Position numbers and translations under genes: made by a program
Assembly (NCBI GenBank): GCA_031428775.1
Contig: JANOYH010000332.1
Span: 339 to 64,338 of the forward strand
Direction: 5' to 3'
Length of the DNA stretch: 64,000 nucleotides
DNA from: Bacteroidota bacterium
GTDB taxonomy: Bacteria; Bacteroidota; Bacteroidia; Chitinophagales; Chitinophagaceae
In this document: in pieces, positions 12,883 to 40,906 of the stretch
How the letters are laid out: the number at the start of each line of letters is the position of its first letter
Numbering within the stretch: position 1 is the first letter of the stretch
The notes under the pieces: generated by a model
The model's input: the letters and a program-made list of their open reading frames with translations, nothing else
Database searches by the model: none
Told to the model about the DNA's origin: nothing

Positions 12883-12950
12883 GAGTCAAAATTTTATTCC
12901 CTTTGCAATACTCGCTTAACTGCTGCAATATATTCCATTTAAAAAATATA

Positions 12951-13604: not shown

Positions 13605-13620
13605 TATTGATTTTTTAAAT

Positions 13621-13652
13621 TAAAAACGGGGTGCGTTTTATCGTACCCCGTT
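13621..13652 (-). terminator. Stem-loop/terminator between xylA and tal
   Basis: Minus strand AACGGGGTACG-ataaaa-CGCACCCCGTT followed by TTT. Confidence 0.65.
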
Positions 13653-13661
13653 ACTATTATT

Positions 13662-14990: not shown

Positions 14991-15143
14991 AATTTTTATT
15001 TTTTATCATTATAAAGGATACTCATTCTAATATAAAATATAGCCACCAAAGAAGAATCCCCGGTGGGTTTATCTAACTACTGATTGCCAAAAAATATTTT
15101 TGATTTTTTTTTAATAACCAATGAAGTATAAAAAATAATTAGT

Positions 15144-15175
15144 AAAGGGAGAGATTAAGTTTAATCTCTCCCTTC
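15144..15175 (-). terminator. Rho-independent terminator after the xylan SusD
   Basis: Perfect 13-bp inverted repeat AAGGGAGAGATTA-agtt-TAATCTCTCCCTT. Confidence 0.8.
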
Positions 15176-15200
15176 TGAATTAATTTATAAACAAGTACAA

Positions 15201-17024: not shown

Positions 17025-17044
17025 AATTAGATAGTTTAATTGGT

Positions 17045-20000
17045 TTAAAATTTAATGTTTAATCCAATAGTGAATTGCCTTGTGGAAGGATTGTTCAAAT
17101 CAACGCTAATTTGTCTAGTTGGCGCGCCTGCATCGCTAGCTCCTGATGGAGTTACAGGATTTGAATTATATGCATTTCCTTCTGGATCAGGACCAAAACC
17201 AGCATCAACAAATGGAGAATAAACAACAAATGGATTTGTCACATTTACATAGAATCTTGCAGCACTAATTCCAGTTTTTGAAAAGATACTATTTGGAAGC
17301 TGATACCCAATATTGATACTTCTACATTTAATAAATGAACCATCTTGATAACCTAAAACAGATCCAAAATGTGCTACTGCATTTCCTGCATCAGGGGCCG
17401 GAAAATTATTAGTAGGATTACTACGAGTCCAATAATCCACCTTAATTTGATTCACGCGACTTTGATTAAAGAAAGCAAAACCACCAGCACCAGTTGAGTT
17501 ACCAGTTAAATATGGAACAGCCGTCATCATACCCATTTTCGCATATGTAACGATGGATAAATCGAATCCTTTATAACTGAATCTGTTTGTCCAACCTCCT
17601 TCCCATTTTGGTTGAAAGTTGCCAATAATTTGTCTATCTGCAGCGGTAATTTTATTATCGCCATCTATATCTTCCACACGAATTTGTCCTGGATATTGGA
17701 CAGGCGATGTCTGTATAGCAATAATTCCTTTTGCGGAATCCTCCGATTGCCATATGCCAATTTTCTTATAGTCATAAATTACAGATAATGGTTGACCAAC
17801 AAACCAACCGTTTCCTTTTATTGACTGTTCGGTAGGAGTACTCAACTGAGTAATTTTTTCTCTGTTAAAAAAGTAAACAAAATCAACACTCCAATTGAAG
17901 CCAGATTTACTTTTAATTACATCTGCACTCAAAGTAAGTTCTAATCCGTGCGACTCGGTCTTTCCTAAGTTTTTCAAAGTAGAACCGGCACCATTACTTT
18001 GAGGAAGATTTACAGATAACAAAATGTCTTTCGTTTTTTGCTGATAATAATCAATACTAGCAGTAATTCTGTTGTTTAGTATACTGAAGTCTAACCCAAG
18101 ATCAACTTGTTCTGTAGATTGCCAACCTAATCCATTTGCTGGCAAACTTGTTACTGTATAGGCCAATTGTTGTCCAGCTGCAGCAGTTCCAAAATTGTAA
18201 TATCCAGCAGACAATGCGCCCAATGTAGCGTATGGAGAAACGTTTCTGTTACCAGATAATCCCCAACCTCCTCTAACTTTTAAGCTTGTAAGCCAAGAAA
18301 CATTTTGCATAAATTTTTCTTGCGTTACAACCCAACCTAATCCTACAGAAGGATAAGTAAACCATTGATTACCTGGCGACAAAGTAGATGAACCATCAGT
18401 TCGTAACGTTGCAGTAAATAAATATTTGTTATCATATCCATAGTTAAAACGTCCCATGTATGAAACTAATCCTTGTTCTGTAAAACTACCGTTTGCTGTT
18501 GGTGTACCGCTTGCTAAAGCAAAATTGGCACTAGCAATATAATCTGCAGGAACGCCAGTAATAGCCATGCTGCTGCCTTGTGAATGGTCTTTCGTTACTT
18601 CAAATAAGCCTGTAAATCCAATTTTGTGCTTTTGAGCAATTACTTTATCATAATACAATAAGTGTTGTAAATTATAATTCCAAAATTCAGTATTATTTAC
18701 ATTTGCATTAGAAGAAGTTTGAACTGTAGCAGTATTTACATAAGTATTTGGACCTGAATATCCATTAAAACTAGATTGGCTATAATTTAAACCAGCATTA
18801 AATCTATAACGAAGGCCTTCGATTAATTTTACTTCCAAATAAGCACTATTAAAAGATCTAATTGACCTGCTTTTTGATAAAATTGCCTCTGATTTAGTTA
18901 TTAAGGTTAAAGGACTAACAATTGCTGCGTCGATAGAACCAGCAGCTGGATATAAGTTTACTGATCCGTCAGTATTATATGGTGATGCTAAAGGAGTTAA
19001 TCTAACTAAACCTCCAGGTACTCCACCACCACCAGGGTTATTAGTATAACTAAGCGTATTTAAACTATTAACACCAATTTTTACACGATTTCCAAGTTTT
19101 TGATCGATTGTTACACGTAATGTAGAACGATCGAATTTTTGATTTGGAATAATTCCATCTTCTTTAAAATAGCCTGCTCCTAAAGAATATTGCGTTGTTT
19201 CTGAACCACCTTGCAAACTTAATTGGTGGTTCATGGTGCTTCCTGTTTTAAAAATTAAATCTTGCCAATTGGTAGATACCCCTGCAGCGAGTGCATCTTT
19301 CTCAGGTATTGTAAGTAAATAAGAGGATGTACCACCACTACTTGGCCATGAAGATCGATTGAATGTAGCCGCATCACTTTTTAGTTGTGCATATTCCGCT
19401 CCGTTGTACACATTGTATTTGCCCATTACAGAAGTAGAGGAAAAATAATCATCAAAGCTGATAACTGGCTTTCCAACTTTACCTCGTTTTGTAGTAATCA
19501 ATATAACCCCACCAGCACCACGTGAGCCATAAATAGCAGTAGCAGATGCATCTTTCAAAATATCCATACTGACAATATCATCTGGGTTTAAATCATTGAT
19601 ACCGCCAAATGGTATTCCATCAACTACAAATAATGGTCCGTCCAAATTATCACTTGAACCAGCACCAGTAGTTAAAGTTCTATTACCACGAATACGAATT
19701 TGCGGAACCGACCCAACTGATCCACTATTGTTTGTAATAGAAACACCAGCGGCTCTACCTTTCAATTGAGAAACAGCATTACCAGCTGGCACTTCTTGCA
19801 ATGTTTTTGCACTTATTGAAACTACTGACCCTGTTAGATCTTTTTTACGCTGTGTACCATAACCAACCACTACAACTTGATCCAACTCTTTTGACAATGG
19901 CATTAAACTTACGCTGATTTCTTCTAAGGAATTAGTAACTGCAATTTCCTTTGGTTCAAAACTTAGATAGGAAATTACCAAAACTGGGATACCGGTTACA

Positions 20001-20239
20001 GCCAACGAAACATGACCGGTCTTGACTGTAGTAGTTCCTACAGTAGAACCTTATAAAGTAAAAGAAGCTCCTTCAATTACAGCACCTTTATCATCCATTA
20101 CCTTGCCTTTAATAGTTTTTGTTTGCGCAAAAGAAGGTGATGATAAAAACAGCATCTGCGCAATAAACAACAGAAAAAATGCCATTTTCTTTAACATTAG
20201 TCCTGCGTTAAATCTAAAATGTATAATATTTTGTTCCAT
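17045..20239 (-). pseudogene. susC: SusC/RagA TonB-dependent transporter interrupted by an in-frame TAA at 20051-20053
   Basis: ORFs 20051..20260 (signal peptide, probable ATG 20239) and 17045..20005 share a frame and read ...GASFTL*GSTVGTTTVKTGHVSLAVTGIPVLVISY... across the stop. The remaining 986 aa look like an intact plug and barrel. Confidence 0.88.
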
Positions 20240-20648
20240 AACAGTTTGTTTGATTGACAATCGTTAATACTTGTGTTATTCAATAATGATCTTATGCATT
20301 TTAAGGAGATTTGCTCCTAAGAAGTATTGGCTCTTTTTTCATATGGCTGTTGTTTTAAGGTTTAATAAATGGTACACAAGATTGTTGCACGATGAATAAC
20401 CATTGCTTAGGGTTTTCAGCAGTATTATAAAATGCCTTCGATTGCATTTTTGATAGTAAAAAAAAGGACTGAATAGAGGGAATATATATAGCTAGTATTG
20501 AAACCCAATAGAGACTTAGCAACACACTAATTACCCCAATTATAAAGAATGGATTTTCCATACAGCAGCTAATCGAATGGTTAAAAAAACAACTATTTTT
20601 TCTGAAAATTTATTATTCTGGAACGAATATACAAGAATTATTTAAAAA

Positions 20649-20662
20649 TGTAACCGTTTACA
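20649..20662. promoter_or_regulatory. LacI-type operator TGTAACCGTTTACA upstream of the xylan susC
   Basis: Palindrome TGTAAnCGnTTACA, identical to the site at 29776. Confidence 0.75.
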
Positions 20663-21750
20663 ACATTTTTTTTAATTACGCCATATTTGATCACTTTACC
20701 CCTTAGTAAACTGCCTAACAAACAACCTATTCGAATATATCTAGGCTATCATATAATACAGTTACTGCATTGAATTGCGTATTTAGAATCAATCCAACTA
20801 TTAGTCCAAATAAGAGAAATTTGATGCAAAAGCAGGCAAAAACCATCGCTAAAAACAAAATAATTATGTACAAGCATTTCTCAAAAAGAAGATAAATATG
20901 CATGCTGCAAGCGTCTATTTAATTATAGCAAACTCACCTGCCTTGTACTTGAAGAAATGGACTAAAGTTCATTTTTCTATCCATAACATATGCCAAATGA
21001 GGCAATATATCTACATCAATAAGAAAGAAAAATAACAGACTAATTTTACAAAGTGGAGATGGGTAAAATATATTCCATTAGCATCCGAAACGATAGTCTA
21101 AGAAATTTTATAGCCCGCCTAAACGAAAGAAAATCCTTTTGTAACTGACCTAATTTCAGTCAATTGGAAGCTGAGTAAAATTGTAAAGGTCTACAAAATA
21201 TTAACCCTAAATAGCCACGTACTTACTGCTGTGATTGCCTTTTATTGTATTCCTCCTATTGATAACACACTCATTATAAGTAACTTTTGAATGGAATTAG
21301 TTGTACTTAAACTGCATTAAGATCGTTCCCGATAAAATACCAGACCAGTTAATTTATGACAACCATCTATTAATAACTTCTTTACCAATGGATCTGGAAT
21401 TTATCCTGAAAACTGAATAAAACAGATGTCGTAATGCCTCACTTTAACTTAGGTTGCTACGAATATGCCATTTTAATAAAACTTATTAAGTGATATTCCG
21501 CAATATTCTAAGCAATGTTAATACTCCAAATATAATATTGAAATCTTAATTCAAGTTACCTATCGCTCAAACCCTTTTTTATATTTCTAGGTATTACAAA
21601 AGGCCAAATAACATTAAGTGCTAAATTTTCCTATTACTTGTTGAAAATTCAGGGATAGTTTAAATAAGCAATAATTCACTCGATCTAAATTCAGGAATTT
21701 TGAGTGAAATAAATAAAAAGTTGAATTATGCTTTTTTTGTTGAAATTTGT

Positions 21751-21764
21751 TACAACCGATTACA
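21751..21764. promoter_or_regulatory. Degenerate LacI-type operator TACAACCGATTACA
   Basis: 12/14 match to TGTAACCGATTACA at 30927; directly upstream of the LacI-like stub and the enzyme cluster. Confidence 0.5.
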
Positions 21765-21766
21765 TT

Positions 21767-21814
21767 ATGAAGATTAAACGAGATGTAACCATATATGAAA
21801 TAAGGGAAAATAAT
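21767..21814 (+). pseudogene. Stub of a LacI-family regulator (start of the HTH only)
   Basis: [16 protein letters not shown] versus EVTIYDIARELN (29855) and EVTIYDIADKL (41815); DNA gatgtaaccatatatgaaata---agggaa versus gaagtaaccatttacgatattgccagggaa. Confidence 0.5.
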
Positions 21815-21940
21815 TATTTCATGAAATACAGATGGTCAATTAGATGGTTTTTGAAACTAACAATAGCAGGCTATGTTTTCAGGATAACCAGATGTGCAAA
21901 AAATATTTCTGCTGAATACATTCCTTTTCAAGTAGTTAAA

Positions 21941-22111
21941 ATGCGAACAGTAATAGTATCTTTTTTGATTACCACTTGTTTTTCAACAAATTCAATTTCG
22001 GCTCAAACAAGTATCAGCCTTAATTTGAATACAGCTAAAGACACCATCAATAAAAATATCTATGGCCATTTTGCTGAGCATTTAGGACACTGTATTTATG
22101 GTGGCTTTTAG
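21941..22111 (+). pseudogene. Truncated GH51 alpha-L-arabinofuranosidase (signal peptide plus about 35 residues)
   Basis: [22 protein letters not shown] then the GH51 N-terminal motif [21 protein letters not shown], then TAG; no catalytic domain follows. Confidence 0.85.
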
Positions 22112-22166
22112 TGTTGCAGTACTTGAATTGAAATAGAATTACCAATTAACTGACTAAAGAATTTTT

Positions 22167-24131
22167 ATGAAGAAAAAAATAATTCTCTTACTATTAACTT
22201 TTTATCTATTTGCAATTTCAAATTTACAATTTGCTAATGCTCAAAAAAATACAATTAATAATACCAATTTTGAACAAGTAAATACCTATACAAATCCAAT
22301 TCTTCCTGGCGACCATCCCGACCCTACCCTATTAAAAGTTGGAAACGATTTTTATCATTGTGGCTCTTCATTTCATTTCAATCCCTATTTACCCATTTAC
22401 CATTCAACCGATTTAGTGCATTGGGAAATTATTGCAAGAGTAGTAACTCCATCAAAAGCTGCTTCTTTTGTGGCTGATCGTCCGTCAGGCGGCATCTGGC
22501 AAGGAGCCATCACTTATTTCTATGGTTCATATTGGATTTATTTTTCTTCTGGAGGTCAATGGTTTTGCAAAGCAGATAATCCAAAAGGTCCGTGGTCAGA
22601 TCCAGTAAAAGTTAAAGAGAATCCAGTAACTGGCCCTCTAGGTTATGATAATGCCATTTTTGTTGACGATGATGGCAAACCTTATATGGTCATTAAAAAC
22701 GGACAAAAAACCAATCGTTTACAAGCACTAGGAAAAGATGGACAATTAGCAGATACCGTAATTAATCTAGATTGGATCAATGCAAAATTGCAGTATAGCT
22801 GGGCTGAGGGTCCGGTGATGTGTAAAAGAAACGGTTACTATTTTTATTTACCCGCTGGAGATGTTTCTGGAGGGCAATATGTGCTTAGATCAAAAGAATT
22901 AACGAGTGATTCAACCAAATGGGAAAGGTTAGGTGATTTTTTTAAACCAATTACAGATCCAGATGCTGGCTTCCGTAGGCCCAATCATATTGCTGCTCCA
23001 TTGCAATTATCAGATGGTACCTGGTGGACGATTGGCCAGAGTTATGAAAAGTATGCAGCTGATGACTGGTCAGGCATGGGCCGTCAAACATCACTATACC
23101 CAGTAACATGGGAAGGCGATCGCCCTTGGGGTATGGCACCAACAACTCAACCAATCGAAAGACCGAATTTGCCCAATACGAATATTCTATGGAGAAATGT
23201 ACAAAGCGACTATTTTGATCATGAAATTCTTGGGATGCATTGGCATTTCTTAACAAGAAAAGCTGCAAATAATTATTCACTTACAGCAAGAAAAGGTTGG
23301 ATCAGATTAAATCCAGACAGCATTCGTACGCATATTGTACAAAAAGAAACAGATCATTTCTATTCGGCAATCACAAAGGTAGAAATCGATGCAAGAGATA
23401 CTTCCAATAAAGCTGGATTATATCTAACCAACGGTAATCAAAAAGTGATCGTTAAACTATATGCTGGTTTTGCAAATGGGAAAAAAATCATCTTTCAATT
23501 AGATTCTGCAATAAGGGTGTTTGATAATCCTGTTGGTAATATGGTATGGTTAAAAATTGAAAGAAATGCACATTTACTCTTTGCTTATTATAGTAAAGAT
23601 GGAAATAAATGGATCTCATTAGGTGCACCAATTAATTCCATTCATTTAGATAAAACACAACCAAATTATAATTCATGGGTGGGCACTAGTATCGGATTAT
23701 TTGCGGAAGGTAAGTCTGCAGATTTCGATGTATTTATTTGCAAGGACGCTTTCTCTACTATGGCTGCTGCTGGATTTTCTAATTACTATGGTATAAAAAA
23801 GCTTAAAAAAGATGCGGAAACATTTGTTACAAACACATCTTCAAATGGTGGATGGTTGATGTTCTCAGGTGTTGAATTAGGAAAGATTCCAGCTTCCTCT
23901 ATCGAAATAACAGCTTCTGCTATCGCAAAAGGAACAATAGAAGTTTGGATAGATGATTTAAAGTCAGGAAAATTAATAGCAACTATACCTATTGAAATTA
24001 CAGGAGAAAACAAATGGAAATCGTTTACCAGATCTATTAAAAGAATTACTGGACATCATGATGTCTTTATTAAATATAACAAAGGAAACGAAAGCAGTTT
24101 ATTGATTAAATGTTTTCGGTTCATAAAATAA
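22167..24131 (+). CDS. GH43 xylosidase/arabinofuranosidase with C-terminal beta-sandwich and CBM6-like module
   Basis: NPILPGDHPDP, YHSTDLVHW, WAEGP; tail WLMFSGVELG..IEVWIDD..G.HDVFIKY is CBM6-like; signal peptide. Confidence 0.9.
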   Translation: MKKKIILLLLTFYLFAISNLQFANAQKNTINNTNFEQVNTYTNPILPGDHPDPTLLKVGNDFYHCGSSFHFNPYLPIYHSTDLVHWEIIARVVTPSKAASFVADRPSGGIWQGAITYFYGSYWIYFSSGGQWFCKADNPKGPWSDPVKVKENPVTGPLGYDNAIFVDDDGKPYMVIKNGQKTNRLQALGKDGQLADTVINLDWINAKLQYSWAEGPVMCKRNGYYFYLPAGDVSGGQYVLRSKELTSDSTKWERLGDFFKPITDPDAGFRRPNHIAAPLQLSDGTWWTIGQSYEKYAADDWSGMGRQTSLYPVTWEGDRPWGMAPTTQPIERPNLPNTNILWRNVQSDYFDHEILGMHWHFLTRKAANNYSLTARKGWIRLNPDSIRTHIVQKETDHFYSAITKVEIDARDTSNKAGLYLTNGNQKVIVKLYAGFANGKKIIFQLDSAIRVFDNPVGNMVWLKIERNAHLLFAYYSKDGNKWISLGAPINSIHLDKTQPNYNSWVGTSIGLFAEGKSADFDVFICKDAFSTMAAAGFSNYYGIKKLKKDAETFVTNTSSNGGWLMFSGVELGKIPASSIEITASAIAKGTIEVWIDDLKSGKLIATIPIEITGENKWKSFTRSIKRITGHHDVFIKYNKGNESSLLIKCFRFIK

Positions 24132-24172
24132 AAACGAATACACTTTTTTTAGAATTGATTTAAAAGGTCACA

Positions 24173-25483
24173 ATGAAAAAATATCTATACTTAATAACTG
24201 TTTGCATTTTTATTTATTCTTGCAGCAAAGGAAAAGTTGGATCACCCACTCCAACTCCTACACCATTACCAGCACCTGTAACTCCCATTTCTGTTGCAGT
24301 TACGATTATACCTTCAACAACTTATCAAACTATTACTGGTTTTGGAGGTGCAAACCGTATGTGGGGAACTACATCTTTAAAACCTGCTGAAGCCCAAAAA
24401 GCCTTTGGTTTGGGGGATGGTGAATTAGGACTCAGCATTTTTAGGGTTAGATTATCCTCCAACCAAACTGAATGGCCCCTTATTCTTGAAGCGGTAAAAG
24501 AAGCAAATAAAAGAGGAGTAAAAGTTCTTGCCTCTCCATGGTCGCCCCCACCTTCTCTAAAAGACAATAACAGTGATGTTCGAGGCCACCTATTATCGCA
24601 GAATTATGTAGCATATAAAAATTACATGAATGATTTTGTCAGCTACATGTCCACCAATGGCGCTAAAATAGATGTTGTATCTATTCAAAACGAACCAGAC
24701 TGGAAGCCAACTTATGAATCCTGTGATTGGACGGCAGATGATATGATCAATTTCTTAAACGCTCCTGGTACGATCTCTAACGTTCAAGTGGCAGCTCCGG
24801 AGTCATTAAACTTCAATCAAAATTTTACGAATACTATTTTAATGAACGATCAAGCGGCATCAAAACTTAGTATTGTAGCTGGTCATATCTATGGAGGTGG
24901 CATTGCAAAATTTCCATTGGCAGAACAAAAGAATAAAGAGATATGGATGACCGAATATTTAATGAATTTAAATACTGGAAATGCTGGTGCTCCAAAATGG
25001 AGTACTTATTCTGAATCTGATAAATGGGATGAAAGCCTTAAAATGCTTGGGTCAATTCAAGAAGTACTATCCAATAATTGGAATGCATATATATGGTGGT
25101 ATTTACAAAGGTATTATTCATTTATTGGCGATGGAGAAGAAGGATCAACTAATGGAGAAGTCTTAAAAAGAGGGTATGCCTTTTCACATTTTTCTAAATT
25201 TATACGACCAGGTTATGTTAGAATCAATGCTGATTATACTGCAAACACATCACTTAAAGTTTTGGCATTTAAAAAAGATACTCAAACAGTAATTGTTATT
25301 ATAAATACCGATCCTTCTATAACCTACAACACTGTAATTAACGGACTACTCATTTCTTCTGGCAGCTCCTATACCACATCCTTGTCTATTAATTTATCGA
25401 AAAAAACACTAACTATCACAAACAATAAAACAACAATAGAAATACCTGAAAAAAGTGTAACAACATTAGTTCTCAATAATTAG
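24173..25483 (+). CDS. GH30 (subfamily 8-like) glucuronoxylan endo-xylanase, lipoprotein
   Basis: Lipobox IYSC, Pro/Thr linker, TITGFGG, LASPWSPP, SIQNEPD (acid/base), WMTEY (nucleophile), YIWWY, HFSKFIRPGYVRI. Confidence 0.88.
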   Translation: MKKYLYLITVCIFIYSCSKGKVGSPTPTPTPLPAPVTPISVAVTIIPSTTYQTITGFGGANRMWGTTSLKPAEAQKAFGLGDGELGLSIFRVRLSSNQTEWPLILEAVKEANKRGVKVLASPWSPPPSLKDNNSDVRGHLLSQNYVAYKNYMNDFVSYMSTNGAKIDVVSIQNEPDWKPTYESCDWTADDMINFLNAPGTISNVQVAAPESLNFNQNFTNTILMNDQAASKLSIVAGHIYGGGIAKFPLAEQKNKEIWMTEYLMNLNTGNAGAPKWSTYSESDKWDESLKMLGSIQEVLSNNWNAYIWWYLQRYYSFIGDGEEGSTNGEVLKRGYAFSHFSKFIRPGYVRINADYTANTSLKVLAFKKDTQTVIVIINTDPSITYNTVINGLLISSGSSYTTSLSINLSKKTLTITNNKTTIEIPEKSVTTLVLNN

Positions 25484-25560
25484 AATTCATAGGAAACAAT
25501 ATTAAATAAATTTCAATTAAAATAAATAATACATACGATTACCATTAATTTATTTAAGAA

Positions 25561-27987
25561 ATGTTTATCAGAAAAAAAATAGTAAATCAACACTTTTATG
25601 GGGGTACGCTCTTATTGGTATGCCTATTTGGGGTATTTGGAAAACTGTATGCGCAAGAAAAATTATGCACTAATGAATTCCCCTTGTCTGATGTTACCCT
25701 ATTGGATGGTCCATTTAAACACGCACGGGATCTAAATATCAGAACAGTTTTGAAATATGACATTGACCGTTTGCTAGCAGGTTATAGAAAAGAAGCAGGA
25801 CTTACCCCTAAAGGAAAGATTTACGCTAATTGGGATGGATTGGATGGTCATATTGGAGGCCACTATTTATCAGCCTTGGCAATGAACTATGCTGCCACAA
25901 CCAACCCAGAATGCAAAAAACGTTTGCTCTATATGCTTTCTGAATTAAAAGCTTGCCAAGATGCTAATACGCGCAATAACCCCGATTGGGGCAAAGGATA
26001 TGTTGGTGCGGTACCAAATGGCCAGAAGATATGGAGCACATTGCAGATAGCCGATTTTAATGCCTTTAAAGCTGCTTGGGTGCCATGGTACAATGTTCAT
26101 AAAATGTATGCTGGGTTAAGAGATGCTTGGTCTTATACTGGAAATGAAGATGCTAAACTACTATTCCTGAAATTTTGTAATTGGGGAATCAATATTACAG
26201 CCGCACTAACAGATAAACAAATGCAATCGATGTTAGATACGGAACAAGGGGGCATGAATGAAATATTTGCGGATGCCTATCAAATTACGCATGATGAAAA
26301 ATACCTGCAAGCAGCAAAAAGGTTTTCACATAGAATGTTGTTGGATGCGATGTCGGCAGAAAATGATAACCTAGATAATAAACACGCCAATACGCAGGTT
26401 CCAAAAGCCATTGGGTTTGAACGGATAGCCGAAGTTGCAAACGACCAATTGTACGAGAAAGCAGGAAGCTTTTTTTGGCAAACAGTTACCACAAATCGCT
26501 CACTTGCTTTTGGAGGAAACAGTAGAAGGGAATTTTTCCCGAGTATTAGTTCCAATAATGATTTTATAAATGATGTGGAAGGGCCAGAATCATGTAACTC
26601 TTATAACATGCTAAAACTGACAGAGGACCTATTCAGGATGCATCCTCAGGCAAAATATGCGGATTATTATGAAAGAACATTATTCAATCATATATTATCA
26701 ACACAACATCCGGAACATGGAGGTTATGTATATTTCACACCCGCACGTCCCAATCATTATAGAGTGTATTCAGCACCCAATCAGGGCATGTGGTGTTGTG
26801 TAGGAAGTGGCATGGAAAATCATGGAAAATACAATCAATTCATATATACCCATCAACACGATTCTTTATTTGTTAATCTTTTTATTGCATCTACCCTAAA
26901 TTGGAAAGAAAAAAGAATACAATTCAAGCAGGAAACAACATTCCCAAATGAAGAGCAATCAAAAATTTCAGTAGTATCAGGTGCTGCGCGTTTTACATTA
27001 ATGATCCGTAATCCATATTGGGTAAAAGAAGGAACCTTCAAAATAACTGTAAATGGCAAAATTATAACGCAGGTTTCGTCTCCCTCCTCTTATATAGCTA
27101 TTGAAAGATTTTGGAAAAAGGGGGATCAAATTCAAGTTTCACTTCCAATGACTAATACGGTTGTACAACTTCCAAATGTATCAAATTATATTGCATTTAT
27201 GTATGGCCCTATTTTATTGGGAGCTAAAACAAATAATGAAGACCTTATAGGCCTCATTGCAGATGATAGTCGTTGGGCACATATTGCAGGAGGAAAAAAA
27301 TTGCCCCTCCAGCAAACTCCCATTATTATTGATGATAGTTTGTTGTCTTTATCTGGAAAAATTAAACCCCTTGTAGGTAAGCCTCTGAATTTTACTTTCC
27401 AACAAGTAAAATTGATCAATGCTCAAGACCTTTTATTACAGCCTTTTTATACCATTCACGATTCCAGATATATGATGTATTGGATGACTTTAACCAAAAA
27501 TCAACATCAAGCTTATATAGATTCAATATCAGTAAAAGAAAAGAATGATCTTGCTCTTCAAAAAAGAACTATCGATTTTGTTGCACCAGGTGAACAACAA
27601 CCAGAGGCAGATCATTTAATCCAAAAACTAAATTCAAATACAGGAAATTTTCTCGATGCGTTCTGGCGTGACGCAAGAAATGGTGGTTATTTCAGCTATC
27701 AACTTAATACGAAACAGGAAACTAATTGTAGCCTTCTGGTTAGGTATTGGGGAAATGAAAAAGGAAATAGACAGTTTGAGATTTATATTGACGATCAAAA
27801 ATTGATTACAGAAAATATTTCCGACAAATGGAAGGATCAGCAATTTCATGATGTTGAATATGTAATTCCAAATTCTTTGATCAATCAAAAGACGCAAATT
27901 AATATTAAAATTCAGTCTTTGCCTCAAAGTATTGCTGGTGGTATTTATTACATCAGATTGATTAAAAAGAATGTAGCAACTGATTAA
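25561..27987 (+). CDS. GH127/GH146 beta-L-arabinofuranosidase-like protein
   Basis: GLDGHIGGHYLSAL, EQGGMNE, HANTQVPK, ESCNSYNMLKL, YYERTLFNHIL, WCCVGSGMENH. Confidence 0.9.
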   Translation: MFIRKKIVNQHFYGGTLLLVCLFGVFGKLYAQEKLCTNEFPLSDVTLLDGPFKHARDLNIRTVLKYDIDRLLAGYRKEAGLTPKGKIYANWDGLDGHIGGHYLSALAMNYAATTNPECKKRLLYMLSELKACQDANTRNNPDWGKGYVGAVPNGQKIWSTLQIADFNAFKAAWVPWYNVHKMYAGLRDAWSYTGNEDAKLLFLKFCNWGINITAALTDKQMQSMLDTEQGGMNEIFADAYQITHDEKYLQAAKRFSHRMLLDAMSAENDNLDNKHANTQVPKAIGFERIAEVANDQLYEKAGSFFWQTVTTNRSLAFGGNSRREFFPSISSNNDFINDVEGPESCNSYNMLKLTEDLFRMHPQAKYADYYERTLFNHILSTQHPEHGGYVYFTPARPNHYRVYSAPNQGMWCCVGSGMENHGKYNQFIYTHQHDSLFVNLFIASTLNWKEKRIQFKQETTFPNEEQSKISVVSGAARFTLMIRNPYWVKEGTFKITVNGKIITQVSSPSSYIAIERFWKKGDQIQVSLPMTNTVVQLPNVSNYIAFMYGPILLGAKTNNEDLIGLIADDSRWAHIAGGKKLPLQQTPIIIDDSLLSLSGKIKPLVGKPLNFTFQQVKLINAQDLLLQPFYTIHDSRYMMYWMTLTKNQHQAYIDSISVKEKNDLALQKRTIDFVAPGEQQPEADHLIQKLNSNTGNFLDAFWRDARNGGYFSYQLNTKQETNCSLLVRYWGNEKGNRQFEIYIDDQKLITENISDKWKDQQFHDVEYVIPNSLINQKTQINIKIQSLPQSIAGGIYYIRLIKKNVATD

Positions 27988-28039
27988 CCAAAATGAAAGG
28001 CATTAAAAAAATATTGATCAATAAAATAAAATATAAAAT

Positions 28040-29626
28040 ATGCAGCTAAAGAACATACACAAAGGGCTCATCCTCTTGATGACATTGTTTTGGTTAGGCA
28101 CAATAGTTGCTCAAGAAAATTTTAAAGCTAAAAACCCGATCATTTATGGGGATGTACCTGACATGTCAATGGTTCGTGTGGGTGATACCTATTACATGAG
28201 TAGTACCACCATGCATATGAGCCCAGGTGTGCCTATTATGAAATCGAAAGACCTCGTCAATTGGCAGCTCATCAATTATGCATATGATACATTAGCAAAT
28301 ATGGATGCCATGAATCTAATTAATGGTAAAAGTACCTATGGAAGAGGTTCATGGGCCAGTTGTATCCGTTATCATAACGGAACATTTTATGTGAGCACAT
28401 TTGCGCAAACAACAGGGACCACTTATATCTATTCTACAAAAGATATAGAGAAAGGACCTTGGAAAAGAAATGCATTTAAACCAGCCTATCACGATCACTC
28501 CTTGTTTTTTGATGATGATGGAAAAGTGTATTTAATATACGGTAACGGCAAACTAAATCTGATTGAATTAAAGGAAGATCTTTCAGGCGTGAAAGAAGGT
28601 GGCATTAATCAAGTTGCGATAGAAAATGCAAGTATACCGAGTTTGCCTGAAGGAAAAAAAGGCGGCCTAGGTGCAGAGGGTTCTCAACTTTATAAAATAA
28701 ATGGTAAATATTTTTTGTTCAATATTACATGGCCTCCTGGTGGAATGCGCACGGTTGTAATACACAGATCAGCTAAAATCACTGGCCCTTGGATTGGAAA
28801 AATTGGTTTACAAGATTTAGGAGTTGCACAAGGGGGATTAATAGATATGATTGATGGCACATGGAATGCTTATCTATTTCGTGATTATGGTTCAGTTGGT
28901 AGAATCCCTTATTTGGTTCCAGTTAAATGGGAAGATGGTTGGCCAGTATTAGGAATAAATGGTAAAGTTCCTGAAACACTTAACTTACCTGCTAGTAAAG
29001 GTTTGATTCCTGGCATTGTAAACTCCGATGAATTTAATAGAAAAAAAGGCGACCCAACCCTGCCCCTCGTATGGCAATGGAATCATAATCCTGATAATAA
29101 TTTATGGTCTATTACAGAACGTAAAGGCTTTTTAAGACTCAAAACAGGACGGATCGATACCTTGTTTTTGAAATCAAAAAACACATTAACACAACGCACG
29201 ATTGGTCCTGTTTGCACTGGCACTACTTTTATTGATGTTTCTCATTTAAAAGAAGGTGATTTTACAGGCCTATGTGTTTTGCAAAGGAAATTTGGACAAG
29301 TAGGTGTAAAGATAATGAATGGATCCAAATATTTATTCATGGTAAGTGCCGAAAGCAATACGCCAGTTGAGTTGCAAAGTATCCCTCTTAATCAAAATAA
29401 TGTGTACTTAAAGATTGAATGCGATTTTAGAAATAAAATTGATCTAGCACATTTTTATTATAGCTATGATGGAAAACTGTGGACTGAAATTGGTAGCCAA
29501 TTAAAAATGGAATATACTTTGATGGAACATTTCATGGGCTATCGATTTGGGCTTTTCAACTACGCATCAAAAATACCTGGTGGATATGCAGATTTTGACT
29601 ATTTCCACATTTCAGATAAAATTTGA
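28040..29626 (+). CDS. GH43 beta-xylosidase/alpha-L-arabinofuranosidase with C-terminal beta-sandwich
   Basis: NPIIYGDVPD, SKDLVNW, GSWAS, YHDHSLFFDDDG, AEGSQLYK, WQWNHNP, FMGYRFGLF. Confidence 0.92.
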   Translation: MQLKNIHKGLILLMTLFWLGTIVAQENFKAKNPIIYGDVPDMSMVRVGDTYYMSSTTMHMSPGVPIMKSKDLVNWQLINYAYDTLANMDAMNLINGKSTYGRGSWASCIRYHNGTFYVSTFAQTTGTTYIYSTKDIEKGPWKRNAFKPAYHDHSLFFDDDGKVYLIYGNGKLNLIELKEDLSGVKEGGINQVAIENASIPSLPEGKKGGLGAEGSQLYKINGKYFLFNITWPPGGMRTVVIHRSAKITGPWIGKIGLQDLGVAQGGLIDMIDGTWNAYLFRDYGSVGRIPYLVPVKWEDGWPVLGINGKVPETLNLPASKGLIPGIVNSDEFNRKKGDPTLPLVWQWNHNPDNNLWSITERKGFLRLKTGRIDTLFLKSKNTLTQRTIGPVCTGTTFIDVSHLKEGDFTGLCVLQRKFGQVGVKIMNGSKYLFMVSAESNTPVELQSIPLNQNNVYLKIECDFRNKIDLAHFYYSYDGKLWTEIGSQLKMEYTLMEHFMGYRFGLFNYASKIPGGYADFDYFHISDKI

Positions 29627-29668
29627 AACAAATCAACAGAACCTATTTATAGTTTCAAATAGGGACAA

Positions 29669-29696
29669 AAAAGTAGCTGTAGATTGGCTACGTTTT
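29669..29696 (+). terminator. Probable terminator after GH43
   Basis: AAAAGTAGC-tgtagattg-GCTACGTTTT hairpin. Confidence 0.4.
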
Positions 29697-29775
29697 GAAT
29701 GAATTTCGCTACACAACCAAATTCGTATACGCAGTCAAAGTCTGGCATTTCAAATAATTATATTATTTAATACAA

Positions 29776-29789
29776 TGTAACCGTTTACA
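29776..29789. promoter_or_regulatory. LacI-type operator TGTAACCGTTTACA upstream of lacI-1
   Basis: Palindrome; a Bacteroidota -7 element TATTTTTG lies at 29808-29815, so the site overlaps the expected -33 region. Confidence 0.78.
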
Positions 29790-29854
29790 TTTATTTTTCT
29801 AAAACATTATTTTTGTTAGCTTTACAACATATCTTAATGAATGTATACGATTGT

Positions 29855-30880
29855 ATGGTAAAAGAAGTAACCATTTACGATATTGCCAGGGAATTAAACT
29901 GCTCTATTGCAACAGTTAGTAGAGCCTTACAAAATGACCCGGTAGTTAGTGCCAAAACCAAGAAGAGGATATTAGACCTTGCTGAAAAGAAAGGATATCG
30001 TTCCAACTATTTTGCTAGTAGCCTTAGAAAAAGAAAAACCCATACTATTGGGGTAATGATGCACGAACTGAATTCCTATTTTATGGTCTCGGTGCTTTCA
30101 GGCATAGAAAAGGTATTATCAGAAACCAACTACGACATTATTATTGCTCACTCAGGAGAGTCGGGTAAAAAAGAAGTGGCCAATGCCAATAACTTATTTC
30201 ACAAACGGGTAGATGGTTTAATAGCCTCGCTTGCCTACGACACTCCTAACCTCGCCCATTTTGACCAATTCACAGAAAAAAATATCCCCATAATTTTCTT
30301 TGACCGCGTTGAAGAAAATAGTACCGGCACCAAAGTGATCATTAATAATCAAAAGGCCGGTTACGAAGCCACGCAACACTTGATAGACCAAGGATGTAAA
30401 AGAATTGTTCATATGACAGGCTTCCTAACAAGAAACGTTTACTTCTATCGCATGGAAGGCTATAAAGCGGCCTTGAAGGACAATAATATGAAGTTTAAAG
30501 AAAGCTATCTGTTTGTCAATGACCTCCAAAAGAAAGCTTGTGTGGAAACTGCTAAACTCATCGCTAAAATGAAACCTTTACCCGACGGAATATTCATAAC
30601 CAATGATATTTCTGCCGCCATTGTAATGCAAACACTTAAAGAATTGGGGATTAAAGTACCAGACGATATTGCAATTGTAGGATTTAATAATGATATAGTA
30701 AGTACCATTGTTGAACCCAAATTAACAACCATTGATTACCCTGGTTTTAATATGGGAGAAGTTGCTGCAAGGAATCTGATTAATCACCTAAATGGTAATG
30801 GCGACATTAAACTGACTAGCTCCATAGTGATCAAATCAGAATTATTAGTGCGGGGATCTTCACTTAAATTAAACAACTAA
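29855..30880 (+). CDS. LacI family transcriptional regulator (lacI-1)
   Basis: VTIYDIARELNCSIATVSRAL HTH, N..A.SLR hinge, VDGLI, PDGIF, VPDDIAIVGF, LTTI. ATG 29855 preferred over the track start 29813. Confidence 0.95.
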   Translation: MVKEVTIYDIARELNCSIATVSRALQNDPVVSAKTKKRILDLAEKKGYRSNYFASSLRKRKTHTIGVMMHELNSYFMVSVLSGIEKVLSETNYDIIIAHSGESGKKEVANANNLFHKRVDGLIASLAYDTPNLAHFDQFTEKNIPIIFFDRVEENSTGTKVIINNQKAGYEATQHLIDQGCKRIVHMTGFLTRNVYFYRMEGYKAALKDNNMKFKESYLFVNDLQKKACVETAKLIAKMKPLPDGIFITNDISAAIVMQTLKELGIKVPDDIAIVGFNNDIVSTIVEPKLTTIDYPGFNMGEVAARNLINHLNGNGDIKLTSSIVIKSELLVRGSSLKLNN

Positions 30881-30926
30881 AATTTAAGAATATAAATAAA
30901 ATAAGGTCAGAAAATCACCTCATCAA

Positions 30927-30940
30927 TGTAACCGATTACA
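30927..30940. promoter_or_regulatory. LacI-type operator TGTAACCGATTACA upstream of the GH115 operon
   Basis: Palindrome 29 bp before the GH115 ATG. Confidence 0.78.
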
Positions 30941-30969
30941 GCTTTGTCGAAAAAATAAATACTTGCCTG

Positions 30970-33540
30970 ATGAAAAAAAATAGAATCCTTCTAATACTCT
31001 TTTTATGGATGAAAACAGCTGCATTCACGCAACTAGCAGTTATTAATCATGCAAGCGCTAATTACATTCCCATCAGTACACAAACTCAAACTACCTATAT
31101 TTATACCGACAAAGCAGATGATTGGTTAGTTCAAAAATCTGCAGAACTATTACAACAAGACATAACATCTATTACTTCAAGAATTCCCCAAATTATTCAC
31201 GACCTGAACCAGGCAAAAAATAATTTAATCATCATTGGCAGCCTCAACAGTTCTACCACTATTCAGCAATTGGCGCGTTCAAAAAAGATTAGCATTGGAC
31301 AATTAAAAAATCAATGGGAAGCTTTTCAAATAGCAGCTGTGAGAAATCCTTCAAAAAACATTTCCTCCGCCATCATCATTACAGGTAGCGACAAAAGAGG
31401 AACTGCCTTTGGTGTTTTTGAATTTTCAAAAAGCATCGGCATTTCTCCTTGGTACTGGTGGGCTGATGTTCCTGCAAAAAAGAAAAACGAAATCTTTATA
31501 TTAAAAGCTGTAACCAATTTTGCCTCCCCTTCTGTAAAATACAGAGGCATTTTTATCAATGACGAAGCGCCTGCATTTTCTGGTTGGACAAAAGAAAAAT
31601 TCGGTGGGGTGAATCACTTGGTCTATGAAAAAATGTTTGAATTATTACTCCGACTAAAAGCCAATTACCTCTGGCCCGCTATGTGGGGCAATGCATTCAA
31701 TGACGACGACAAATTAAACCCCATTCTAGCTGATCAATACGGAATAGTAATGGGCACATCGCACCACGAACCTATGTTGCGCGCGCAAACGGAATGGAAA
31801 AGATATGGAAAAGGTGCCTGGAACTATACCACCAATGATTCTATCTTAAAAAGCTTTTGGAAAAAAGGTATCGAAAACATGGGAACCCATGAAAGTATTG
31901 TCACCATAGGCATGAGAGGCGATGGCGATGAACCCATGACCCAAGGAACGGCCATATCTCTGCTGGAGAAAATAGTTGCTGACCAACGAGACATCATTAC
32001 CGATGTAACAAAAAAGCCAGCCTCGGAACAACCCCAACTATGGGCTTTGTATAAAGAGGTGCAGGACTATTACGACAAAGGAATGCGTGTTCCGGACGAT
32101 ATTACGCTACTGCTTTGTGATGACAACTGGGGCAATATCCGCAAGCTTCCCAAATTGGGCGAAGCCAAAAGAAAAGGCGGCTACGGAATCTATTATCATT
32201 TCGATTATGTAGGCGACCCAAGAAATTACAAATGGATCAACACTAACAATATTTCACGGGTTTGGGAACAAATGCACCTGGCTTATGAATACGGTGTTGA
32301 CAAAATCTGGATCGTGAATGTAGGTGATTTGAAACCAATGGAATTCCCAATCAGTTTCTTCCTAGATTATGCTTGGGATACCAAAAAATGGAATGAAAAG
32401 AATTTAATGGATTATTATACTGAATGGACTTCTGAACAATTTGGTAAAACTAACGCAAAAGAAATCGGTAATATCATAGCAAGGTATTCTCAACTGAGTG
32501 CAATTAGAAAACCCGAATTGATCAATGAAGAAATATTTAGCCTGCAGAACTACAATGAAGCAAATAGAATAAACACTGAGTTCGAAATATTATTGACCGA
32601 AGCAGAGAGATTAAATACCGCTATCCCTGCTGAATATAAAGACGCTTATTTTGAATTGGTATTGCACCCCGTAAAAGCATTTGCCAATTTAATGCAATTG
32701 TATTTGACCGTTGCCCAGAATAAGTTTGCTGCAAAGTATTTTCAAGCAAATGCGAATCTACTAGCCGACAAAGCAAAACAACTTTATCTTAAGGATTCTT
32801 TGTTAAGTGTAGAATACCATCAGATTGCCAATGGTAAATGGAACCATATGATGGATCAAACGCATATTGGTTATACCTATTGGCAACAACCTTTTACTAA
32901 TAAAATGCCTGCTGTGAAATATGTTTCACAAGATTCTATCCAGTCAGACATCATTATCATCAAAGGCAAAAGCATCACGGCAAAATCAAGTATTCCTAAA
33001 GACAGCAATAGGAATTTGTTTTTTGAACAGGATGGATACGTATCCATTAATGCAGAGAATTTTACAAAAGCAATTAACAGCAATGGGGTTGAATGGAATA
33101 TCATTCCAAATATTGGCAGAAGCAATGCTGGCGTTAGCTCTTTCCCAGTCAATACTCCATCCCAAAAGCTAACAGAAAACTCTGCTTCACTACAATATGA
33201 AATCTATACTTATGATAGCGGCAACATAAAACTCAATACCTACTTCTCTCCAACGTTGAACTTCCAAAATACTGACGGTTTAAAATGCGCCATTTCTATT
33301 GACGATGAACAACCTCAAATAATCAATATCAATGAAGGATTAAATGATCAGAATAATTGGAGGGGCTGGGTAGCAAATAATATCATCGGCAAGACCACCA
33401 AGCATATCATTACAAAACCAGGAAAACATACCATCAAATATTGGATGATTGATTCAGGAATAGTATTGCAAAAAATTATTGCCGACTTAGGTGGTTTAAA
33501 ACCAAGTTATCTAGGCCCAGAAGAAACTAAACTTAAATAA
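30970..33540 (+). CDS. GH115 xylan alpha-1,2-(4-O-methyl)glucuronidase
   Basis: SVKYRGIFINDE, LRLKANYLWPAMW, MGTSHHEPM, GMRGDGD, LLCDDNWG, YYHFDYVG.PR, WIVNVGDLKP. Confidence 0.95.
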   Translation: MKKNRILLILFLWMKTAAFTQLAVINHASANYIPISTQTQTTYIYTDKADDWLVQKSAELLQQDITSITSRIPQIIHDLNQAKNNLIIIGSLNSSTTIQQLARSKKISIGQLKNQWEAFQIAAVRNPSKNISSAIIITGSDKRGTAFGVFEFSKSIGISPWYWWADVPAKKKNEIFILKAVTNFASPSVKYRGIFINDEAPAFSGWTKEKFGGVNHLVYEKMFELLLRLKANYLWPAMWGNAFNDDDKLNPILADQYGIVMGTSHHEPMLRAQTEWKRYGKGAWNYTTNDSILKSFWKKGIENMGTHESIVTIGMRGDGDEPMTQGTAISLLEKIVADQRDIITDVTKKPASEQPQLWALYKEVQDYYDKGMRVPDDITLLLCDDNWGNIRKLPKLGEAKRKGGYGIYYHFDYVGDPRNYKWINTNNISRVWEQMHLAYEYGVDKIWIVNVGDLKPMEFPISFFLDYAWDTKKWNEKNLMDYYTEWTSEQFGKTNAKEIGNIIARYSQLSAIRKPELINEEIFSLQNYNEANRINTEFEILLTEAERLNTAIPAEYKDAYFELVLHPVKAFANLMQLYLTVAQNKFAAKYFQANANLLADKAKQLYLKDSLLSVEYHQIANGKWNHMMDQTHIGYTYWQQPFTNKMPAVKYVSQDSIQSDIIIIKGKSITAKSSIPKDSNRNLFFEQDGYVSINAENFTKAINSNGVEWNIIPNIGRSNAGVSSFPVNTPSQKLTENSASLQYEIYTYDSGNIKLNTYFSPTLNFQNTDGLKCAISIDDEQPQIININEGLNDQNNWRGWVANNIIGKTTKHIITKPGKHTIKYWMIDSGIVLQKIIADLGGLKPSYLGPEETKLK

Positions 33541-33560
33541 TTCAACAACAAAATGTCAAC

Positions 33561-34697: not shown

Positions 34698-34731
34698 CAA
34701 GGAACTTTCACTAATCCAATAAACATTAATC

Positions 34732-36201: not shown

Positions 36202-36272
36202 GATTTATTACAAAAATAAAAAATAGGTTTTTACAAAGGAAATAAATTAGGACATATACAATTTCATATTTT

Positions 36273-37313: not shown

Positions 37314-37383
37314 TAGAGGTTTTCAAAATAATTATAGATGAAATTTAAAAATAACATTAGTTGAAACTGAAAAATAACAATAG

Positions 37384-39321: not shown

Positions 39322-39349
39322 GCATATTTTAACTACACAATTTCTAATT

Positions 39350-40876: not shown

Positions 40877-40906
40877 ACTATAACCGAGTTTTCAATTCTC
40901 TTTATT

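Follow-up and report, generated by a model that had tools for sequence, protein, structure and literature searches.

The xylan locus contained in the window (the whole stretch of 64,000 nucleotides analysed here) raises the question of which protein recognises the 14-bp palindrome that recurs between its genes, and what this recognition would control. Exact copies of TGTAACCGWTTACA occur on the forward strand at three positions (20649, 29776, and 30927; see Table 1), and a copy matching 12 of the 14 positions, TACAACCGATTACA when read on the same strand, is found at 21751, as the preliminary description had reported. Its observation that AA directly precedes the intact copies likewise holds for all three, and the 14-mer becomes a 16-mer once this AA is included. 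Allowing up to two mismatches, a pattern search of the window yielded seven matches, every exact site being counted on both strands, against 0.94 expected, a number reached in none of 100 shuffles. The motif is not common at unrelated genomic sites: the three exact copies are the only ones in the assembly (3.77 Mb, 368 contigs), where about 0.1 would be expected by chance from the base composition, and the single copy with one mismatch lies within an ORF on a different contig. All three exact sites are intergenic and together span 10.3 kb. A fifth site, TGTATACGATTGTA at 29842, was overlooked in the preliminary description, and the copy at 21751 is better read on the reverse strand as TGTAATCGGTTGTA. 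The palindrome TGTAAnCGnTTACA, centred on CG, is thus present at five intergenic positions, two of which bracket the predicted lacI-1 promoter. An origin of the copies from one duplicated cassette, i.e. by recent segmental duplication, was rejected because comparison of their flanks revealed no DNA similarity beyond 16 nt.

Table 1. Coordinates of the genes, operators and promoter elements of the xylan locus, numbered from the first letter of the window
Feature	Position	Strand	Remarks
xylA, fsa, xylB	11404..14990	-	Separate unit without operator here; Pfam, NCBIfam
Strong terminator hairpin after susD	15175-15144		14-bp stem; xylA-fsa-xylB follows
susD and susC	15201..20239	-	Pfam
Candidate susC -7 box TATATTCG	20624..20631	-	17 nt from operator; predicted
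Operator in susC upstream region TGTAACCGTTTACA	20649..20662	+	Exact copy, score 20.9
Relic -7-like box TCACTTTAC	20691..20699	+	28 nt after the 20649 operator; predicted
Start-codon-proximal type site TGTAATCGGTTGTA	21751..21764	-	Score 17.2; 12/14 to the initial pattern on +
Fossil N-terminus of third lacI gene	21767..21808	+	tblastn; translation
GH51 arabinofuranosidase stub	21941..22111	+	Signal peptide and about 35 aa, then stop
GH43-CBM6, GH30, GH127, GH43 genes	22167..29626	+	Pfam
Terminator-like hairpin	29673-29691		3' of the GH43-CBM6/GH30/GH127/GH43 genes
Distal lacI-1 operator TGTAACCGTTTACA	29776..29789	+	Exact copy, score 20.9, invariant block in alignment A2
lacI-1 promoter -7-like box TAGCTTTAC	29817..29825	+	Conserved; 27 nt after distal operator
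Proximal lacI-1 operator TGTATACGATTGTA	29842..29855	+	Score 15.6; last base is the A of the start codon
lacI-1	29855..30880	+	LacI-family regulator, helix SIATVSRAL; Pfam PF00356 and Peripla_BP domains
Operator before GH115 TGTAACCGATTACA	30927..30940	+	Exact copy, score 22.2, best of the genome
GH115, GH10, sugar-cation symporter, GH43, SASA esterase, CE15, CE4	30970..41698	+	Pfam, NCBIfam; symporter of GPH type (Pfam MFS_2)
lacI-2	41815..42873	+	Paralogue of lacI-1: same helix, diverged effector domain (46% identity)

A scoring matrix was built exclusively from the sites of relatives and then run over the whole genome, a scan that the preliminary description had proposed. Sites of the window rank first to third (30927, followed by 20649 and 29776 as joint second), the site at 21751 is seventh, and all five good sites of the genome belong to the xylan locus, to which the motif is confined. 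Seven of the eight next-best matches examined outside the locus lie within ORFs, the exception being C244:5634 (score 15.9), so that the high-scoring matches examined elsewhere in the genome point to no further regulon members save possibly this one; a second GH10 gene, situated at a contig edge, is without a site. The comparison across relatives, proposed likewise, was equally favourable. Using the six-sequence alignment A1 as query (LacI-1 alone recovered nothing), we obtained 80 related loci, mostly from Chitinophagaceae, which contain 111 exact TGNAANCGNTTNCA sites where 1.28 are expected; 101 of the 111 are intergenic, adjoining lacI (88), susC (47) and xylA/xylB (12), and same-genus genomes show the same pattern. 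In dozens of genomes the motif is kept upstream of orthologous lacI, susC and xylA/xylB genes; lacI is followed in relatives by GH67, an SDR gene and GH115, and the sites adjoin susC, lacI-GH67-GH115-GH10 operons and xylA/xylB. Cultured relatives with the same putative regulog include Sediminibacterium roseum SYL130, S. goheungense DSM 28323, Terrimonas ginsenosidimutans, Hanamia caeni, Flavihumibacter cheonanensis and Phnomibacter sp. MR.

The locus itself encodes two proteins, LacI-1 and LacI-2, in which the LacI helix-turn-helix (PF00356) is joined to an effector domain resembling periplasmic binding proteins (PF13377, PF00532, PF13407). The genome contains six LacI paralogs, and these two are the only ones with the SIATVSRAL recognition helix. 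Within-genome paralogue pairs have identical recognition helices and effector domains that are 46–56% identical. The hinge-helix Leu is retained in both proteins (NYFASSLR in LacI-1, NNFARNLR in LacI-2), at what we take to be the position of E. coli LacI Leu56, the residue inserting into the central CpG. Moreover, bases 3/12 of the operator covary with the residue that follows Ser in the helix, T/A being associated with Ile and C/G with Ala or Ser: the Ile-Ala helix is paired with T/A in 10 of 11 cases and T/A occurs with other helix types in 0 of 66, a covariation partly confounded by shared descent, the T/A state having about four origins on the protein tree, each with Ile. The covarying position is presumably that of LacI Tyr17, which is reported (Lehming et al.) to determine specificity towards the outer bases of the half-site. 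NCBIfam holds no equivalog for LacI-1 or LacI-2 and therefore gives no hint on the effector. Because the matrix ranks, the sites of relatives and the helix covariation concur, sequence comparison supports well the reading of the 14-mer as the operator of the locus-encoded LacI-1 and LacI-2 repressors, which we consider likely.

The motif also fits the Firmicute cre consensus, TGWAANCGNTNWCA, and among solved homologues CcpA is the closest to LacI-1, as might be expected if the sites were bound by a CcpA-like regulator of global catabolite control or by one of the remaining four LacI paralogs. However, instead of the many genome-wide sites of a global regulon there are five good ones, all in the xylan locus; the other four paralogs differ from LacI-1 and LacI-2 in their recognition helices, and the genes of two of them are preceded by palindromes of another sequence. 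Across genomes the motif accompanies the orthologues of LacI-1 and LacI-2 and varies in step with their helices, and binding by another regulator appears very improbable.

The arrangement of the operators relative to promoter-like elements fits repression by LacI-1 and LacI-2. Upstream of lacI-1, alignment A2 displays an operator, a -7-like box and a proximal operator in succession; TAG and TTTAC of the box are invariant in 11 of 11 sequences, and TAGCTTTAC would correspond to the Bacteroidota -7 element (TAnnTTTG), the distal operator being placed just upstream of the predicted -33 region. The proximal site is homologous to TGTAAACGATTGTA, which is kept immediately 5' of the lacI ATG in 10 relatives, in a region that is non-coding because an in-frame TAA is present in relatives. 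The autoregulation put forward in the preliminary description agrees with these two sites flanking the lacI-1 promoter. On the susC side, alignment A3 shows one operator between divergent -7-like boxes, with TAnnTTAG about 19 nt from it in the susC direction. In the window, the 20649 operator is located about 390–450 bp away from susC, whose start codon may be that at 20197 or that at 20239, compared with 230–410 bp for the homologous site in relatives, and the relic box on its other side has the spacing of the lacI-1 promoter (compared with TAGCTTTAC in A2). The last base of the 30927 operator begins a possible -7-like AGCTTTG (30940–30946), which suggests an overlap with the GH115 promoter. 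This site seems to be specific to the lineage of the window, since near GH115 in the relatives L104 and L050 the sites occur inside coding sequence and their position is not conserved. A sigma-70 promoter scan, with a consensus that is the wrong one for Bacteroidota, was uninformative (72 matches vs. 67 expected).

The position of the distal lacI-1 site just 5' of the predicted -33 region would also suit LacI-1 and/or LacI-2 acting as activators at some promoters, and a few LacI-family proteins, such as CcpA and Cra, do activate. A transcriptome paper reads LacI genes beside xylanase clusters in this way (PMC7409140). On the other hand, the positions of the leader site of lacI-1 and of the 30927 site, which overlaps the putative -7 box of GH115, are typical of repressors, and the characterised LacI-type xylan regulators that we found, XylR of Xanthomonas and Caulobacter, repress (PMC10380989). 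We give activation hardly any credence and retain repression.

Two parts of the locus depart from the claim in the preliminary description that an operator stands at every transcription unit, which was overstated. xylA and xylB are direct targets in relatives and have no site in the genome of the window; within the gap 14991–15200 the matrix scan detected no site scoring at least 7. The 21751 site, originally assigned to the GH43-GH30 genes, lies 2 bp before ATG 21767, the start of a fossil lacI, at a distance of 416 bp from the start codon of GH43, and no GH43-GH30 promoter is demonstrable there. The fossil consists of 12–15 aa that match the very N-terminus of LacI-1 orthologues at 53–83% identity (tblastn, E about 0.006–0.02, weak if taken alone), and the GH51 stub that follows matches the N-terminal part of 512-aa proteins from the loci of relatives at 49–72% identity (tblastn, E to 3e-18). 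The 1.1 kb after the 20649 operator contains no ORFs, and no Rfam family was found in this long spacer; a decayed lacI gene within 20663–21750, suggested by a weak match (25.6% over 86 aa, E 0.003), was rejected as chance because the match overlaps the operator itself. Finally, susC carries an in-frame TAA (20051–20053).

The susC stop, the GH51 stub and the fossil lacI were counted against the proposed explanation, as was the missing xylA/xylB site. The first three may mean that the circuit has partly ceased to work, or that there are errors in the assembly. Taken further, they could mean that the operators are real but largely relics of a rearranged or eroded locus, those at 20649 and 21751 above all controlling no functional unit: the latter precedes only the 12-aa lacI fossil and the stub, and the former, judging from the orientation in relatives, points towards a vanished lacI and is followed by the relic -7-like box and the ORF-free stretch. 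Yet the 20649 site has kept every position of the motif, which would not be expected at about 30% GC if it were free of constraint, the same single site serves susC in relatives at a similar distance, and the susC stop could have arisen in assembly, the genome being a metagenome-assembled one. We regard a locus of relics as unlikely and continue with operators that LacI-1 and LacI-2 would still use.

In E. coli, GalR and GalS are two LacI-family paralogues that share common operators and respond to the same sugar. The identical recognition helices of LacI-1 and LacI-2 suggest similarly shared binding, whereas their diverged effector domains may sense different xylan products. The HTCS xylan loci of Bacteroides ovatus and Prevotella bryantii resemble the present one in combining SusC/SusD with GH10, GH43, GH115 and esterases for glucurono-/arabinoxylan, but employ a periplasmic oligosaccharide sensor where putative cytoplasmic one-component repressors would here sense imported products; the contig of the window encodes no hybrid two-component sensor, and the six Y_Y_Y-domain proteins of the genome are all encoded elsewhere. 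The "different regulatory logic" of the preliminary description is apt in comparison with these gut HTCS systems but overstated in view of Xanthomonas and Caulobacter, in which LacI repressors control xylan loci with TonB-dependent transporters (PMC10380989, PMC12125979). Indeed, the XylR/xyl-box system of Xanthomonas campestris/oryzae and Caulobacter crescentus likewise relies on a LacI-family repressor and a CG-centred 14-bp palindrome, and joins TonB-dependent transporters, xylanases, glucuronidases and xylose catabolism in one regulon (PMC10380989, PMC12125979). In relatives, the placing of the sites points to a regulon that likewise unites a TonB-dependent transporter, xylanases, alpha-glucuronidase and xylA/xylB; in the genome of the window, xylA/xylB are siteless. 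XylR differs in belonging to another phylum and in its xyl-box, TGGTAGCGCTAACA, which deviates from TGTAACCGWTTACA at positions 3–6 and 9–12 (PMC10380989), and the present locus differs in its SusC/SusD transporter, its two paralogous repressors and its xylA/xylB without a site. Among Bacteroidota, the predicted Bacteroides LacI-family regulators UxuR, UxaR and KdgR (RegPrecise; PMC4052901) form a clade tied to uronic-acid catabolism, of which the lacI, GH67, SDR, GH115 order in relatives is reminiscent, but are set apart by regulon content, monosaccharide catabolic operons there as opposed to a SusC/SusD locus here. AusR of the Zobellia galactanivorans alginate locus is a one-component repressor of a polysaccharide locus in a non-gut member of the phylum, but of the GntR family and with another substrate and operator (PMC7641319). 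The LacI-type XylR works alike, and LacI genes have already been annotated in polysaccharide utilisation loci and figure in lists of their regulators (PMC7641319, PMC5306329). The logic is thus of a known kind, an ordinary sugar switch with a textbook mechanism. The motif is nevertheless conserved across a whole bacterial family, in which we came upon no earlier account of it.

From the sites, their statistics, their conservation and the covariation observed, we infer binding, sign of regulation, promoter positions and effectors as follows. Without inducer, a repressor dimer would occupy the 20649 site between the back-to-back -7-like boxes (that of susC and that of the relic lacI-type promoter), further dimers the pair bracketing the lacI-1 promoter (29776 beside the -33 region and 29842 within the leader, by the start codon), another the 30927 site overlapping the likely GH115 promoter and, probably, one the weaker 21751 site. 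Once a xylan-derived sugar had been imported via SusC/SusD and the symporter, its binding to the effector domains would free the DNA of the repressors; judging from operon content, one may guess that one paralogue responds to xylose or xylo-oligosaccharides and the other to a product of the glucuronic-acid type. Derepression would then extend to uptake, to the enzymes acting on backbone and side chains and to the genes of the two repressors, the last amounting to negative autoregulation. More tentatively, LacI-1 and LacI-2 could share one operator set, with recognition helices evolving in concert with their operators, so that the locus combines two signals derived from xylan, e.g. xylo-oligosaccharide and (methyl-)glucuronic acid, by an AND (or heterodimer-tuned) function; this seems to us possible, though the less probable outcome.

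As far as searchable papers go, the regulation of polysaccharide utilisation loci is characterised chiefly for gut Bacteroidota; Chitinophagaceae and their relatives are abundant in soil and fresh water. For the xylan loci of the latter the present analysis provides a concrete regulatory model, comprising an operator sequence, target promoters, two candidate repressors and a predicted specificity-determining residue, in which cytoplasmic one-component repression, known from the xylan systems of Xanthomonas and Caulobacter, appears to be paired with SusC/SusD machinery. If, as in the more tentative reading, helices and operators evolve in concert, the natural switch between Ile and Ala/Ser at the first recognition-helix position, together with T versus C at operator base 3, would offer a ready-made example of a recognition code in the LacI family.

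The window contains a glucurono-/arabinoxylan locus, the features of which are collected in the table below. Pattern search of the window finds TGTAACCGWTTACA in three exact copies on the + strand (20649, 29776 and 30927), each directly preceded by AA, and in a 12/14 copy at 21751, all as the preliminary description had given them. Allowing up to two mismatches gives seven matches against 0.94 expected, a number that none of 100 shuffles reaches, each exact site being scored on the other strand too. Across the whole 3.77-Mb assembly (368 contigs, 95.6% complete, the window being C332:339–64338), exact copies are restricted to these three, with about 0.1 expected from base composition; the one copy with a single mismatch lies within an ORF on another contig. 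Comparison of the flanks of the copies reveals no similarity beyond 16 nt, so that the 14–16-mer itself is the element that has been kept. These searches confirm the original observation, and the analysis of related loci described below brings the number of sites to five.

Features of the xylan locus (window positions; scores from a matrix built from relatives' sites only)
Feature	Position	Strand	Score	Remarks
xylB	11404-12882	-		
fsa	12951-13604	-		
xylA	13662-14990	-		
susD	15201-17024	-		
susC	17045 to about 20239	-		
spacer between susC and + strand genes				1.7 kb, without long ORFs
operator	20649	+	20.9	joint second in genome
operator	21751	-	17.2	read as TGTAATCGGTTGTA
GH51 stub	21941-22111	+		
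GH43-CBM6, GH30, GH127, GH43	22167-29626	+		
operator	29776	+	20.9	joint second in genome
operator	29842-29855		15.6	TGTATACGATTGTA; missing from the preliminary description
lacI-1	29855-30880	+		
operator	30927	+	22.2	first in genome
GH115, GH10, GPH-type symporter, GH43, SASA esterase, CE15, CE4	30970-41698	+		
lacI-2	41815-42873	+		

As called, the ORFs of the SASA esterase and of CE15 have 83 nt in common (39239–39321); the true CE15 start probably lies further downstream.

Orthologues of LacI-1 in three genomes of the same genus share 59–64% identity with it, and their lacI upstream regions contain TGCAACCGATTGCA, TGTAATCGGTTGCA or TGTAACCGATTGTA. A scan with a six-sequence alignment recovered 80 loci (60–67% identity, 1.16 Mb in total), nearly all labelled Chitinophagaceae or Chitinophagales, including Sediminibacterium, Ferruginibacter, Terrimonas and Hanamia. 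These loci contain 111 copies of the relaxed pattern TGNAANCGNTTNCA, where composition predicts 1.28. Of the 111 sites, 101 are intergenic, and the adjoining genes are lacI (88), susC (47) and xylA or xylB (12). The typical layout is susD-susC, site(s), lacI(-lacI)-GH67-SDR-GH115-GH10-symporter-GH43, the alternative being xylA/xylB divergent from lacI; one same-genus genome retains susC/susD divergent from lacI-lacI-GH67-GH115-GH43-GH51. The sites of the window and of the relatives consistently have an asymmetric core, AACCGATT rather than AACCGGTT or AATCGATT. This core, AACCGWTT, is oriented like the adjacent lacI in 74 of 88 cases in the relatives, and any further site that lies towards susC is usually reversed. 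Two relatives also carry a perfect operator within the GH115 coding sequence (L104:11194 and L050:9934): in one it falls in the part for the mature N-terminus, in the other among the codons for the signal peptide.

The whole assembly was scanned with the position weight matrix derived from the relatives, and the motif proved not to be common at unrelated sites, so that one of the two refutations envisaged in the preliminary description does not apply. Seven of the eight next-best matches examined outside the locus fall within ORFs. The exception, C244:5634 (TGTAAACGATTTTA, score 15.9), is the sole intergenic higher-scoring match among those examined and is flanked by genes for 286 and 415 aa. 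The genome has another GH10 xylanase gene, divided between two contig ends (C365:10–912 and C237:6–152), with no operator-like site upstream of it.

Promoter geometry was predicted from the sequence and the alignments. The alignment of 11 lacI upstream regions contains four conserved blocks, in the order AAAA-operator, T-rich stretch, TAGCTTTAC and a proximal operator at the start codon. In the window, TAGCTTTAC lies at 29817–29825, 27 nt past the distal lacI-1 operator, and is similar to the Bacteroidota −7 element, whose consensus is TAnnTTTG. The 29842 site aligns with TGTAAACGATTGTA, which ten relatives keep directly 5' of their lacI start codons and which is non-coding, since it contains an in-frame TAA. 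The distal site would thus abut the −33 region and the proximal one lie in the leader, which would be the classic arrangement for negative autoregulation. Towards susC, conservation in the corresponding alignment is confined to the operator and, about 19 nt from it, a TAnnTTAG-like box (TATATTCG at 20624–20631 in the window); a single operator seems to be placed between two divergent promoters, and the susC leader would measure 230–410 nt in the relatives and likewise in the window. AGCTTTG, which begins at the last base of the 30927 operator, is a possible −7-like box 23 nt 5' of the GH115 ATG.

Of the six LacI paralogs in the assembly, LacI-1 and LacI-2 alone carry the recognition helix SIATVSRAL; the remaining four read SLSTVSRAL, STSTVSRAL, SISTVSKAL and SHSTISRAL, and the genes of two of these four are preceded by palindromes of another sequence. 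Among the relatives, operator bases 3 and 12 covary with the helix residue that follows the capping Ser: at site level, Ile-Ala helices go with T/A in 9/10, Ala-Ala, Ala-Thr and Ser-Ala helices with C/G in 60/66, and Val-Ala with C/A in 2/2. When each gene contributes a single site and the LacI-1 of the window is included, T/A is found with Ile in 10 of 11 and in none of 66 non-Ile proteins; parsimony on the protein tree places about four origins of the T/A state, with Ile each time. In LacI, the preference for the outer half-site bases is reportedly set by Tyr17 and Gln18, the two residues that open the recognition helix (Lehming et al.), and we take the Ile versus Ala/Ser change to fall at these positions. 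Paralogue pairs of the same genome have identical recognition helices despite effector domains of only 46–56% identity (90% in the recent duplicate pair of L105), which suggests that both paralogues use the same operators. Given the conservation, the genome-wide specificity and the protein–DNA covariation, the 14-mer is very likely the operator of the LacI proteins of the locus.

An operator at every transcription unit, as proposed initially, is not what the locus contains. The susD-xylA gap (14991–15200) has no site scoring at least 7 and harbours a hairpin with a 14-bp stem, making xylA-fsa-xylB a separate unit without operator; in relatives, xylA and xylB are direct targets. The 21751 site, assigned previously to the GH43-GH30 cluster, is indeed present 416 bp upstream of it, but stands 2 bp 5' of an ATG (21767) whose ORF matches the first 12–15 residues of LacI-1 orthologues (E about 0.006–0.02) before running into unrelated sequence and then the GH51 stub. 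It makes better sense as the operator next to the start codon of a putative lost lacI copy, and may gate read-through into GH43-GH30-GH127-GH43. The 20649 site is oriented as the lacI-proximal sites of relatives, and the relic box TCACTTTAC (20691–20699) comes after it, spaced as for lacI-1; no lacI remains there. Transcription from this lacI-type −7 box could give a long non-coding leader running in the direction of the GH43 genes. The region 20663–21750 (1.1 kb, roughly 30% GC), located where relatives carry lacI genes, lacks ORFs of at least 100 aa, has no match in Rfam and is not repeated in the rest of the genome. The GH51 arabinofuranosidase stub consists of a signal peptide and about 35 residues before a stop, and is 49–72% identical to full-length 512-aa proteins of relatives. 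An in-frame TAA (20051–20053) interrupts susC at codon 63, in the N-terminal carboxypeptidase-regulatory-like domain (…GASFTL*GSTVGTTT…), the remainder being open; either susC is genuinely a pseudogene or the metagenome-assembled genome is misassembled at this point. The apparent loss of lacI at 21751, its absence at 20649 and the susC stop indicate a rearranged, partly eroded locus.

A LacI-type repressor controlling TonB-dependent transporters, xylanases and xylose genes is known from the XylR/xyl-box systems of Xanthomonas and Caulobacter (PMC10380989, PMC12125979). The regulatory logic is the same here, with a different operator sequence. The "different regulatory logic" of the preliminary description is overstated, applying to the comparison with gut Bacteroides and Prevotella; the contig lacks hybrid two-component sensors (Y_Y_Y proteins), six of which are encoded elsewhere in the genome. 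LacI genes appear in a list of predicted regulators for polysaccharide utilisation loci (PMC7641319), and a drawing of the xylan locus of Gramella flava includes one (PMC5306329); a large LacI regulon survey covers one Bacteroidota group only, around Bacteroides, with xylan unmentioned (PMC4052901). Literature search, largely outside the subscription journals, found no description of this operator or regulog in Chitinophagaceae, which is weak evidence. Judged from sequence, the circuit would be a LacI repressor regulon of the ordinary, negatively autoregulated kind, of which there is apparently no earlier description from this Bacteroidota family. Its most interesting details are, first, a paralogous repressor pair that appears to share one operator set and, second, a naturally occurring correspondence between helix residue and operator base, Ile going with T and Ala/Ser with C.
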